Positions 25,770 to 35,720 of a stretch of DNA of 47,175 nucleotides are shown here, piece after piece. Numbering within the stretch: position 1 is the first letter of the stretch; every line of letters begins with the position of its first letter. This DNA comes from an uncultured archaeon (GTDB taxonomy: Archaea > Asgardarchaeota > Lokiarchaeia > Sigyniarchaeales > SOKP01): positions 1 to 47,175 of the forward strand of contig CAZGJX010000020.1 in the NCBI GenBank assembly GCA_964525635.1, given 5' to 3'. The position numbers and the translations under genes are program-made. The notes beneath the pieces were generated by a model that worked only from the letters and a program-made list of their open reading frames with translations, was not told the origin of the DNA and did not search any database.

Positions 25770-26738
25770 TTAAATTAAAGGACTATTTGGAAGTAATGCC
25801 TTTAATATATTTCTATCCCATAACTTGGTTTTTAAATTAATAATACCAAAAAGATCTTCACAAAAATTCCAATATGCCCAACCTATGCTCCGTTTCTCAG
25901 CTTCTTCTCTGATATAAGTCGTCCAACGGACTCGAGAATTATAATCTGCATGAATTATAGCTCCAAATTCTCCCAAAAAAAGTGGAATATTATTATTATT
26001 TCTTGCCCACTCAACAGCCTGATCAAATGCTAAACTAATAGCTAGTTTTTGTTGAGTTGTACCTTCCCACGTATTCCCTAACCACTGATTACTATCTAAT
26101 TCCCAACTTGCTCCTTGATGAGTAAATTCAAATGGTTCATAGAAATGAAAATTTATTACAATGTTATTATCATTTTCAGGCACTTCTAGCATATTTAAAT
26201 ATCTTAATTTATTATAGAAAACAGGACCATAGATAATCTTCCTATTCGGATTTGTTCTTCTAATAACAGGAATAACTTCTTTAAGATATTGATTCCAGAG
26301 ATAAGGATTTCTATCAAATTCCTCAAATGGTTCATTTAAAAGTTCAAAAAATATATTAGTTGGTGCATTTTGGTAATGTGTTGATATCTGTTCCCATAAT
26401 GAAAGGAATCGAGTCTTATGGGCTTCTGGGAAAAGCATTAATTCCTTATAATGATGAATGTCTAATATAGCGGTCAATCCTCTCGAGAGGGCATTTTGAA
26501 CAACCCAATCAATTCTTTCAAAAAAAGAAGAATCGATTCTGTAAGGTGAATTTATATCAGCATGACTGGACCATCTTATTGGAATTCTAACTAGATTAAA
26601 ACCTGCTTTTTGTACAAGGTCAAAGAATTCTTCTTGTAAAAATAATCCCCAATCACCCTCTTTTGGTGCATCTAAGATATTTCCTAAATTAATTCCTCGT
26701 AAACTATGTAATAAAATATGATTATTATTTAAGTCCAT
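25770..26738 (-). CDS. Glycoside hydrolase family 5 (endoglucanase-like)
   Basis: RGINLGN, VRIPIRW, ELLNEP (acid/base), HFYEPFEFTHQGA, LGEFG (nucleophile). Confidence 0.9.
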   Translation of the reverse strand: MDLNNNHILLHSLRGINLGNILDAPKEGDWGLFLQEEFFDLVQKAGFNLVRIPIRWSSHADINSPYRIDSSFFERIDWVVQNALSRGLTAILDIHHYKELMLFPEAHKTRFLSLWEQISTHYQNAPTNIFFELLNEPFEEFDRNPYLWNQYLKEVIPVIRRTNPNRKIIYGPVFYNKLRYLNMLEVPENDNNIVINFHFYEPFEFTHQGASWELDSNQWLGNTWEGTTQQKLAISLAFDQAVEWARNNNNIPLFLGEFGAIIHADYNSRVRWTTYIREEAEKRSIGWAYWNFCEDLFGIINLKTKLWDRNILKALLPNSPLI

Positions 26739-32880: not shown

Positions 32881-33453
32881 ATGAATGAATTTATTATTAA
32901 TGAGTTTCTTAAACTTAAGTTGGAAGGAGGAAAAACAATAATATATGTAAACAATCAGAAAGTAATTCAGTGTAAATACTTATTATTGTATGATGTAAAG
33001 ATAAAGAATAAAAAATCCAAACATAGGGCAAACAATATAACTATAGATGTTCAAGCTGAGAAATTAGATCATACCTTAGAACGTAATGATGATAATAAAG
33101 TAAACATTCCACCTGAAACAGAGTTTTGGGCACATTCATCTAATTTACAAGTGTGGTATGAAAATAATTATGATACAGAAGTACTTCATACGAATTTAGC
33201 TTTTCCACTCTTGAGAAGGTTAACTAAAGCTGGAGATGAGATAGCAAAGGAAGTATTTAAAAAAGAGATAATTAAGAGATTTAGAAGTGGAAATCTAAAT
33301 GTTATGACTTTTTTGATAAAAGAGGGATATTTAAATCATTTAGATATTGATGATGCAGATATATTATATCAAGAATTAGATTTTGAAGAGTATAAGAAAC
33401 TTCAAAACCTATTAAAAAAATCTAGTAAAATTAAAGAAGGATTTATATTATAA
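32881..33453 (+). CDS. Lokiarchaeal multicopy hypothetical domain (often associated with LRR proteins)
   Basis: LKLEGGKTIIYVN, PETEFWAHSSNLQVW.E..YDT..LH.NLAFPLL. Confidence 0.65.
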   Translation: MNEFIINEFLKLKLEGGKTIIYVNNQKVIQCKYLLLYDVKIKNKKSKHRANNITIDVQAEKLDHTLERNDDNKVNIPPETEFWAHSSNLQVWYENNYDTEVLHTNLAFPLLRRLTKAGDEIAKEVFKKEIIKRFRSGNLNVMTFLIKEGYLNHLDIDDADILYQELDFEEYKKLQNLLKKSSKIKEGFIL

Positions 33454-33488
33454 CAGTTTAATATATAATAGAATACCTGCGCATAGGT

Positions 33489-33540
33489 TATTCATCAAAT
33501 AACTTCCCTGTGAAGGGTTTCTTTATTTGAATCATCATAT
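33489..33540 (-). promoter_or_regulatory. Putative eukaryote-like SECIS element (K-turn hairpin) in the 3' UTR
   Basis: AUGA-U-UCAAAUAA-AGAAA-CCCU-UCAC-AGGG-AAG-UUAUUUGA-U-GA, core starting about 10 nt after the stop of a gene with an in-frame UGA. Confidence 0.7.
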
Positions 33541-33545
33541 TAAAA

Positions 33546-34481
33546 TTATTTGCCACAATCTTCAGCTTTTTGTAAATTTAATTTTTGAAAAGCTTCTTCT
33601 TGTTTATTTCTCAGCCTTGTTTTTATATTTCTATTTACTTGTTTTAGATATTTAATTGCATTAATCTTTCCGCTTTTGATATTGTCGAATAATTCTTGTT
33701 TATTAGAACCTCCAGATATTGTCAATGCTGTCTGAAAAGTCTGTGATGGTTTTAATGTTTTAAATTCAATTTGCAGAGCAGATAGAATTTCTCCAGGTTG
33801 ATCATGTAATGTATTTGATAAATCTAATTTTTCTTGTTCTAAATTAAATTCATTAACTAAACATGATTCATAATATGTAGATTTTGATATTGGAGAAAAT
33901 CCTGCGTATAAATTACTTTTATCAAATTGATAAATTATGTCATTTTTTTCATCATATCCAGATAAATCATTTTCAAATCCTTCTAAACCGTTGATATCAA
34001 AATCAAAAATGAAATAAATATTGAAATCAATTAGATCAAATTCTGAGATGTTTTGAAAAGTAAAATATGTATTAATGTAAGGTAAGTGTGGTTTAGAGAA
34101 AATATCAATATATAACCGGATATATGGATTATTTTCACTTAAATCATAAGTATTCAAATTATCTTTTCGAGACAATTTTTTCAAATATTCTTGAATATCA
34201 AAATCTAATGTTATTCTATCGATGGATTTACCTTTTCTACTATTAATTAATTTGTAAATAGGTGTTGGTTCGATATTCTTAAGGATTATTGGCACATTTC
34301 CTATTTTATTCCCAGATAATTTAAACCTAAACCAAGGGCCTGCTAATTCTTGTTTGGTTAAATATAATAGATATTTATTATTATATATTAATTCCTTTAT
34401 TGAAAATCCCATTAAATATCCAGATGTATTTCATGTGGCAAGTATCTCGTTAAATTTTGCAATGATTGAGTTAATTATCAA
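33546..34481 (-). CDS. Candidate selenoprotein (in-frame TGA 34431-34433); beta-rich, loosely like GH15/trehalase N-terminal domains
   Basis: Frame open upstream of the track ORF: (M)IINSIIAKFNEILAT-U-NTSGYLMGFS; SD GAGAGGT; SECIS-like hairpin downstream. Confidence 0.7.
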
Positions 34482-34579
34482 TACCTCTCTCTCTTTTTTT
34501 TGACCTCCATTTTATTATTTATATAAAAAAGATATCTTCAGAAGATTAAAAATCAATTATTTTAAGAGTTAAATTTTTA

Positions 34580-35539
34580 TTAAACTCTCTCTAATACTTT
34601 ATGAGCGATATAAGAAAAGGCCTCATTAACATTCTCTCCTGTCTTAGCCGATGTTAATATATAATTATAATCATATTGATCTGATATATTTTTAATGTCT
34701 TCTTCCGTTATAACAATATCACCTATACGATCACTTTTATTCCCAACGATAACCATTGGAATCTTTTCTTCAATTGATTCAGTTATATCATCATGCCATT
34801 TTTTAACGCTTAATAAAGTTCTTTCTCTTGTTCTATCTACAACAATCATGGCGCAGTGAGCTCCATTATAAAATTTCTTTCTATAGTTAATAAAAGTGCC
34901 CTGCCCCCCTACATCCCAAATGATAAAATTAACTGATGTCTTTTCATTTAGTTCCTCAGTATGTTTAGTTATATCGACGCCTATAGTTGAAGTGTAATCT
35001 TCTAAAAACTTTTTTTTTACAAATCTTCTAATGAGGGAAGTTTTTCCAACTTGAAAATCACCAATTAATATCAATTTTGTTGAGAATTCACCTTCTGGTA
35101 ATTTTCCACCTCGAGTTTCTGAGAGAACTTTAATGATTTGAGGTATCTCTAAACTTACATTCTCTTTTCTATCTAATAATAATTCAACTTTTCCAGCTAT
35201 ATGTTCTGAAAAGACTTTTAATTTTATATCTGAAGTCTCAGGTTGGGATAATGTAGTTAGTATTGAATTAGGACCTTGAGAACAGAATGCAAACTTTTTA
35301 TCTCCTGTGGTTGTGATATTAAAGAAACTACTTTCTGTATCAAACTCTTGTTTAATTCTATCAATATAACCATCAAGCATGGATGAAATTGCTCCTATTA
35401 CCGCATCTGAATCTTCTTTCATATCCTCCTTATTTTCAGATGTGATAATTAACCCATTTCTGTCAACAATAGCTACAGCAATAATTCCTTCAACATTGTT
35501 GATATAATTTTTTAATAAGATATTAAGAGATCTTTCCAT
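34580..35539 (-). CDS. Roadblock/LC7 domain fused to Rab-like small GTPase
   Basis: VEGIIAVAIVDRNGLII (roadblock); GDFQVGKTS, TIGVD, WDVGGQ, GNKSD, TSAK. Confidence 0.88.
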   Translation of the reverse strand: MERSLNILLKNYINNVEGIIAVAIVDRNGLIITSENKEDMKEDSDAVIGAISSMLDGYIDRIKQEFDTESSFFNITTTGDKKFAFCSQGPNSILTTLSQPETSDIKLKVFSEHIAGKVELLLDRKENVSLEIPQIIKVLSETRGGKLPEGEFSTKLILIGDFQVGKTSLIRRFVKKKFLEDYTSTIGVDITKHTEELNEKTSVNFIIWDVGGQGTFINYRKKFYNGAHCAMIVVDRTRERTLLSVKKWHDDITESIEEKIPMVIVGNKSDRIGDIVITEEDIKNISDQYDYNYILTSAKTGENVNEAFSYIAHKVLERV

Positions 35540-35720
35540 ACTTATCAGAATTTCTCTATTCTTCTAGTTCCTTATCATTATTATTTAATTTATTCAATTT
35601 AAATATGTTTAATAAGATAAAATAAAATTAGATAATTCTTCATAAAAAAAAAAAAATGTGATCCTATTAGATAGAGGCCCTTTTTTTCTAAATAAAATTG
35701 AAATAATCAATAATTTTTAT

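Follow-up and report, generated by a model that had tools for sequence, protein, structure and literature searches.

On the minus strand of the window, i.e., the whole stretch of 47,175 nucleotides analysed here, a 288-aa open reading frame runs from an ATG at 34412 to a TAA stop codon at 33548-33546. Upstream of this ATG the same frame is free of TAA and TAG as far as a TTG at 34481 and contains one in-frame TGA (34433-34431), and the extension can be read as (L/M)IINSIIAKFNEILAT-U-NTSGYLM, just as the initial annotation of the locus had claimed. With this TGA taken as a selenocysteine (Sec) codon, the complete coding sequence, stop included, occupies positions 33546-34481 (minus strand) and has ca. 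309-311 codons, an extent given by the single-TGA open frame and by orthologs that align from residue 3-10. Numbered from the TTG, the UGA (34431-34433) is residue 17, a reading based on ortholog conservation and on the alignment with cysteine. The ATG taken as start by public annotation (34410-34412) becomes an internal methionine, residue 24, and a cysteine that is invariant in the alignment (codon 33555-33557, residue 309) lies within DCGK, the protein end that had already been noted and that we confirmed.

A ribosome-binding region was recognized by sequence at 34483-34508 (minus strand). It comprises AGAGGT at 34488-34483, in agreement with the Shine-Dalgarno sequence previously proposed for the extended start, plus a perfect GGAGGT at 34508-34503. 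When the sequence was inspected, nothing resembling a Shine-Dalgarno motif was seen ahead of ATG 34412, and our re-reading thus matches the earlier one. Three start candidates are present in the window, i.e., TTG 34481, ATA 34478 and ATT 34475; the extended gene starts ca. 20 codons ahead of the annotated start, at one or other of these. Four other salt-marsh samples yielded contigs that show no difference from the stretch over any part that they cover, and one of these contigs spans the TGA. DNA nearly identical to window positions 33300-35600 is also found in numerous 2019 metagenome runs from salt marshes; of the runs listed, none is recorded as RNA.

Conservation of the UGA codon

A six-frame search of 40 related genomes with the extended protein gave 24 matches within the taxonomic family of the window, and all 24 have exactly one TGA, share 45-70% protein identity and align from residue 3-10. 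In a wider sample (301 genomes of the phylum) the gene was found in 63 of the 68 genomes belonging to the window's Loki-type family. One TGA is present in 61 of these 63 orthologs, and the remaining two also carry TGA, followed by a small insert. A shorter homolog occurs in 50 of the 61 genomes of a second Asgard family, probably Thorarchaeota, where every full-length match listed has one TGA, placed within V-E-C-x-x-U-G.

The flanks of the UGA are conserved as protein (FN-x-I-L-A-T-U-N-x-x-G-Y-L-M-G-F-S), and this protein-level conservation includes the six codons between TGA and ATG. The codons upstream of the TGA vary like coding sequence: across the ten codons preceding it, pairwise differences are 0.33, 0.19 and 0.63 at codon positions 1, 2 and 3, and the corresponding values in the leader are 0.63, 0.63 and 0.56. 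The N-terminal extension, for which conservation among homologs had been an open question in the initial annotation, is therefore conserved as protein, with third codon positions varying. As for its start, the codon 13 positions ahead of the UGA is ATA in 16 of the 24 orthologs (ATG once, ATC once). Since this ATA sits 8-11 nt after a GGAGGT and is aligned with the ATG of the cysteine-containing forms, AUA is likely to be the start codon in the orthologs, as far as can be judged from sequence. In two orthologs (G010 and G020) the codon at the position of the annotated start is TTC (Phe), and the annotated ATG therefore cannot be the start there.

Homologs outside the family place a cysteine opposite the UGA. 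Seven of them, from another family of the same order, lack any stop and show I-C-x-N-C-x-x-K-G-Y, so that the Sec column holds Cys (CxxC); their ATG lies exactly 13 codons upstream, and the N-terminal segment runs straight on into the rest of the protein. In a further family, three homologs have F-D-Y-V-C-x-x-U, and CxxU is found at the Sec column in two other Asgard families in all, this one included. Trp, Arg or Gly, any of which had been named beforehand as evidence against recoding, never occur at this column, where homologs have either TGA or Cys. Only two Cys/Sec columns are invariant in a 32-sequence alignment (A4), i.e., the Sec column itself (C or U) and the cysteine located three residues from the C-terminus. 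The window protein reads L-A-T-U at this site, without a classical CxxU motif, and the first Cys of CxxU is lost in most members of its family.

The two orthologs with a small insert (L059, G291:C161, and L060, G271:C29) carry 31 or 28 nt right after an intact UGA, which shifts the frame, and an apparent ‘Arg’ at the Sec column in two homologs was rejected as a frame artefact of this 28/31-nt insert. In the fold of the inserted RNA, CUUG pairs with CAAG over 4 bp, a 3-nt bulge (AAU) leads into an inner helix of 10 or 8 bp, and AAA comes after it. Cuts placed 2 nt into each 3-nt stretch remove exactly 31 or 28 nt, restoring T-U-N-x-x-G-Y, and the insert thus looks like a tRNA-type (bulge-helix-bulge-like) mini-intron in mRNA. 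The SECIS is kept at both loci.

The RNA element behind the gene

An RNA element (33457-33544, minus strand) fills the gap between two convergent genes, ca. 0.9 kb downstream of the UGA. Its SECIS core (33488-33540, minus strand) consists of AUGA (33535-33532), beginning 10 nt past the stop codon, U, a helix pairing 33530-33523 with 33502-33495, AGAAA, a mini-stem CCCU/AGGG (33517-33514 with 33509-33506) closed by the loop UCAC, and then AAG, U and GA (33493-33492). The initial annotation had described a hairpin with an AUGA/GA core, an 8-bp helix, unpaired As and a capping mini-stem, and this same fold is the minimum free energy structure given by RNAfold, with an energy that is not unusual (z = -1.17). 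Single-sequence folds place a second small hairpin, CCU-AUGCGC-AGG (33476-33487, minus strand), directly 3' of the core, and a likely lower stem (33544-33536/33465-33457) encloses the entire element. Our own loose AUGA-stem-GA pattern matches at about 50 places in this genome of 25% GC, a value close to that of the window itself (about 25%); the shape alone is therefore no evidence, and the case rests on comparative data. The same scan also recovered the SECIS elements behind both UGA-containing VhuD genes. A further match in the window, at 26451-26500 (plus strand) and with a GC-rich mini-stem, was judged to be due to chance, as it lies inside a minus-strand ORF (25770-26738) and three of its eight pairs are G-U.

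Among the aligned orthologs, AUGA is invariant (23 of 23) and the helix is followed by GA in 22, with AA in one. The main helix has 8 bp and a U.U position that varies, AGAAA or AAAAA opens the apical region, and AAG or AG closes it in most sequences. Across these 23 orthologs 94.7% of the cells are paired, and none of 500 shuffles reaches the observed values; changes on both sides are seen in five pairs, of which three belong to the main helix and two are the mini-stem pairs tested, i.e., both of them. A covariance model built by us from the aligned orthologs (R1) gave the window element as its only significant match in the 4.45-Mb genome (62.1 bits), and the element is therefore no repeat. 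Two orthologs held out of model building scored 60.8 and 57.5 bits. The initial annotation had raised the possibility that TGA-bearing homologs might lack the hairpin, but within the window's family R1 scores 25 of 26 loci that carry the UGA. It scores no Cys-form locus, nor does it match at loci of other CxxU families, SelD or VhuD. One ortholog left unscored by R1 (G024) has a divergent stem between AUGA and GA. The model is gene-specific and misses other SECIS elements.

Lokiarchaeal SECIS elements (lokiSECIS) have been described as having a main helix of about 9 positions that is flanked by AUGA on its 5' side and GA on its 3' side, and an apical region that opens A-rich and closes with a G next to a preceding A (PMC4989117). 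The window element matches this published description, and its mini-stem resembles that of the SPS type (PMC4989117, PMC11227280). The type-2 SECIS architecture suggested at the outset is thus supported by conservation, by compensatory changes and by the lokiSECIS criteria of PMC4989117. The outer parts of the element were judged from single-sequence folds and from a helix search, the latter covering 20 of the 23 orthologs. The second hairpin is present in most ortholog folds, with stems that vary (CCU/AGG, CUC/GAG, CCA/UGG and GCU/AGC). The best lower stem in the window has 9 bp, the lower stem often takes in the stop codon, and a stem of the AAAUCC/GGAUUU type or a changed-but-paired version of it (e.g., AAUUAUAU/AUAUAAUU) was found in 12 of the 20 orthologs scored. 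Changed-but-paired variants are thus seen for both the putative lower stem and the second hairpin.

Rfam at gathering thresholds gave no match anywhere in the window, and a tRNA scan of the window likewise returned none. A permissive Rfam scan of the element found no SECIS family and yielded sub-threshold matches only, mostly C/D-box snoRNA look-alikes together with a few unrelated families. The want of a match to the eukaryotic SECIS of Rfam counts against the SECIS reading, but would be expected given the shorter archaeal helix. Different conserved 3' hairpins, built around CCCAAG-UxGC-CUUGGG or GGG-AAGCA-CCC, were observed behind the CxxU forms of the two other Asgard families (L038, L044, L045, L056-L058 and L061). 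These are without the AUGA-helix-GA layout and have no R1 match.

Protein fold and gene neighbourhood

Pfam and NCBIfam (E <= 1) returned nothing for the protein or for its homologs. Database searches gave 392 homologs with E <= 0.001, and the 120 listed are about 273-292 aa long (mostly 286-289), cover 88-93% of the extended query and all begin at the methionine after the UGA. The named ones among these 120 are all ‘hypothetical protein’, mostly from metagenome-assembled genomes of Promethearchaeota/Lokiarchaeota. A confident AlphaFold2 model computed from the 32-sequence alignment (pLDDT 90.2, pTM 0.89) is an all-beta sandwich with C-terminal helices; its strands take in residues 6-25, and the C-terminal tail is of low confidence. 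Foldseek matched it to GH15/GH94 N-domains (E 2e-9), and VIA-align gave Z 18-20 and rmsd 2.6-2.9 Å over 217-238 residues (mostly about 220-230). The structures matched come from bacterial glucoamylase, glucodextranase, GH94 phosphorylases and GH116, in each case from the N-terminal beta-supersandwich domain. The loose likeness to GH15 N-terminal domains initially suspected for this beta-rich protein is hence borne out by the fold search, the N-domain of 1lf6 reaching Z 19.2. In the ESM Atlas, the 288-aa form found Asgard clusters only, plus a weak GH94-supersandwich lead. A thioredoxin fold was ruled out, the model being all-beta and its best structural matches being N-domains of glycoside hydrolases and phosphorylases. 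The model thus predicts a stand-alone beta-supersandwich domain with a short helical tail, whose likeness to GH15/GH94 is one of fold only.

Directly upstream and co-directional lies a Roadblock-Ras GTPase gene (34580-35539, minus strand). What the initial annotation had called a roadblock-Rab GTPase holds as to position and Ras domain (Pfam Ras, E 1.3e-40), but the Roadblock part is less firm, with a weak Robl_LC7 (Roadblock/LC7) match of 20.3 bits that falls under the 23-bit cut-off. In the two families of this order, nearly every locus has this gene as its immediate upstream neighbour, and this holds for the Cys forms too. With the window GTPase as query, none was found beside the homologs in two other families checked, which are outside the window's order. 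The conserved pairing suggests a joint function of the protein with the Roadblock-Ras GTPase.

Decoding of the UGA and comparison with known systems

The genome encodes the whole set of components whose presence the initial annotation had asked to be confirmed, i.e., tRNA-Sec, SelD, PSTK, SepSecS and EF-Sec. The tRNA-Sec gene (59.9 bits) is adjoined by SepSecS (485.6 bits), and EF-Sec (255.9 bits) is located on the same contig as both. PSTK was recovered as a full-length match (E 3.6e-52), its 178 bits being below the NCBI cut-off of 290.5 bits. SelD has its UGA at the canonical site (HG-U-SCKLG), and two VhuD genes with two UGA codons each are followed by type I SECIS elements. The 3' UTR of SelD in this genome (G000, contig C26, about 34713-34790) contains AUGA-U-AUAAGC...GCUUAU-U-GA, after which come another hairpin (CACCUGCAAGGUG) and a lower stem that closes the structure, a three-helix layout like that of the window element.

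Given the conserved UGA, the Cys/Sec pairing, the covarying SECIS and the Sec machinery, we conclude with high confidence that positions 33546-34481 (minus strand) encode a selenoprotein of ca. 310 residues, in which the UGA at 34433-34431 is read as Sec under the direction of the SECIS. Were the UGA a true stop, it would end a conserved 16-codon uORF or leader, the protein would start at ATG 34412, and the hairpin would act as a terminator or stabiliser common to convergent genes. Such a reading can draw on the 288-aa ORF being called everywhere in public annotation, on a hairpin that is indeed located between convergent genes and has an unexceptional folding energy, and on the frequency of AUGA-stem-GA shapes in an AT-rich genome. 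However, in the Cys forms the same N-terminal segment is joined to the protein, from an ATG 13 codons before the Cys, the six codons from TGA to ATG are conserved as protein, Phe replaces the supposed start Met in two orthologs, and the AlphaFold2 model places residues 6-25 within the sandwich. Moreover, R1 scores the hairpin only in UGA loci of the window's family, where the AUGA (and GA/AA) core is fixed and the stems covary. We thus consider a true stop extremely unlikely.

The full Sec pathway of the genome, the UGA-encoded Sec of SelD at its canonical site, the SECIS core motifs of the element and the identity of the aligned residue, Cys, the one that usually corresponds to Sec, also make it very unlikely that decoding of the UGA has some outcome instead of, or in addition to, Sec insertion. 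This could happen by near-cognate insertion of Cys or Trp, or through a selenium-dependent choice between termination and read-through that gives two products, and the internal AUG without a Shine-Dalgarno sequence could yield the shorter form. No known system, to our knowledge, decodes Sec with full efficiency, which counts in favour of such a mixed outcome. As for the 3' element, its permissive Rfam matches are mostly to C/D-box snoRNA, at about 16-21 bits against cut-offs of 38-80, and reflect the AUGAUGA sequence. The probability that it belongs among the C/D-box small RNAs or other kink-turn RNAs and has no tie to recoding is close to nil, as the orthologs carry AAUGAU rather than the RUGAUGA of a C box, there is neither a CUGA D box nor a guide-like conserved spacer, and the element occurs once in the genome, always right behind this gene.

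For the SECIS-directed selenoprotein that we favour, translation would start at a non-AUG codon (TTG, AUA or AUU) behind the Shine-Dalgarno sequence. On meeting the UGA, the ribosome would be supplied with Sec-tRNA(Sec) by archaeal EF-Sec, and the eukaryote-like type II SECIS past the stop codon would direct Sec insertion. The Sec would lie within the first beta-strands and occupy the place of an ancestral CxxC/CxxU motif near the N-terminus, which we infer to be a redox or metal site. Relatives of the protein and the invariant C-terminal Cys suggest that the Sec would serve as redox centre. It may cycle with this Cys in the window's family, because the first Cys of CxxU is mostly lost there and the C-terminal Cys is invariant. 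A partnership of the protein with the neighbouring Roadblock-Ras GTPase is also possible. A more specific scenario, which we regard as speculative and rather unlikely, is a selenium-based redox switch acting with this GTPase, in which a reversible bond between Sec and the C-terminal Cys would control binding of the supersandwich to the GTPase or to a glycan/lipid ligand. If true, Asgard archaea would couple their eukaryote-like small-GTPase signalling to redox state or to the supply of selenium. The conserved gene pair makes a functional link a testable possibility.

Dedicated surveys recognise seven selenoprotein families in Asgard archaea, all of them found by homology to known families (PMC11227280, PMC13188914). 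The window family is absent from the seven families of Huang et al. 2024 (PMC11227280), from a 2026 review (PMC13188914) and from the other Asgard literature searched, in keeping with the early suggestion of a new family unlike the recognised ones. It is a widespread Sec family with a sugar-enzyme-type beta fold that does not appear in the published lists searched, and its UGA is almost certainly read as Sec. The gene, mis-annotated everywhere as a shortened hypothetical protein, adds to the Asgard surveys a lineage-specific selenoprotein family of a different kind, and the beta-supersandwich fold is unreported for a selenoprotein in the literature searched.

Like the window gene, lokiarchaeal SelD/SPS with its type II lokiSECIS (Mariotti et al. 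2016, PMC4989117; Huang et al. 2024, PMC11227280) has one in-frame UGA, and the two elements share the AUGA...GA core, the A-rich bulge, the apical mini-stem, the lower stem and the location in the 3' UTR. In the same genome, a further small hairpin follows the core of the SelD element on its 3' side, as it does in the window element. However, the proteins are unrelated, and the element of the window is gene-specific in sequence, R1 being without a match at the SelD and VhuD loci. Its main helix of 8 bp plus U.U has the length reported for type I lokiSECIS, whereas the SelD element of this genome has 6 bp. The ca. 25 further natural variants of a eukaryote-like SECIS recovered here, with their covariation, could be of use for studying how this element works without SBP2.

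The Asgard redox selenoproteins of CxxU/UxxC type, e.g., the Prx-like, DsbA-like and AhpF N-terminal homologs (PMC11227280), form Sec/Cys pairs with Cys-form homologs, as is the case here, and combine a eukaryote-like SECIS with CxxU, a motif present in part of the homologs of the window gene. They have a thioredoxin fold and the window protein a beta-supersandwich, and the window family outnumbers by far the DsbA-like cases (2 sequences) and the AhpF-like ones (4 sequences). Its fold is held in common with the N-domains of GH15 glucoamylase/glucodextranase and of GH94 enzymes (1lf6, 1ulv, 8bou, 2cqs and 8rf9), but identity to these is 10-14%, the window protein is without the catalytic (alpha/alpha)6 domain, and the N-domains, unlike the window protein, carry no Sec or Cys centre. 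By analogy with the C-terminal redox tails of the thioredoxin reductase type, the invariant Cys on a flexible tail could reach a second redox residue, although in the window protein the Sec would be N-terminal with the Cys on the tail, and there is no flavin or NAD(P)H domain.
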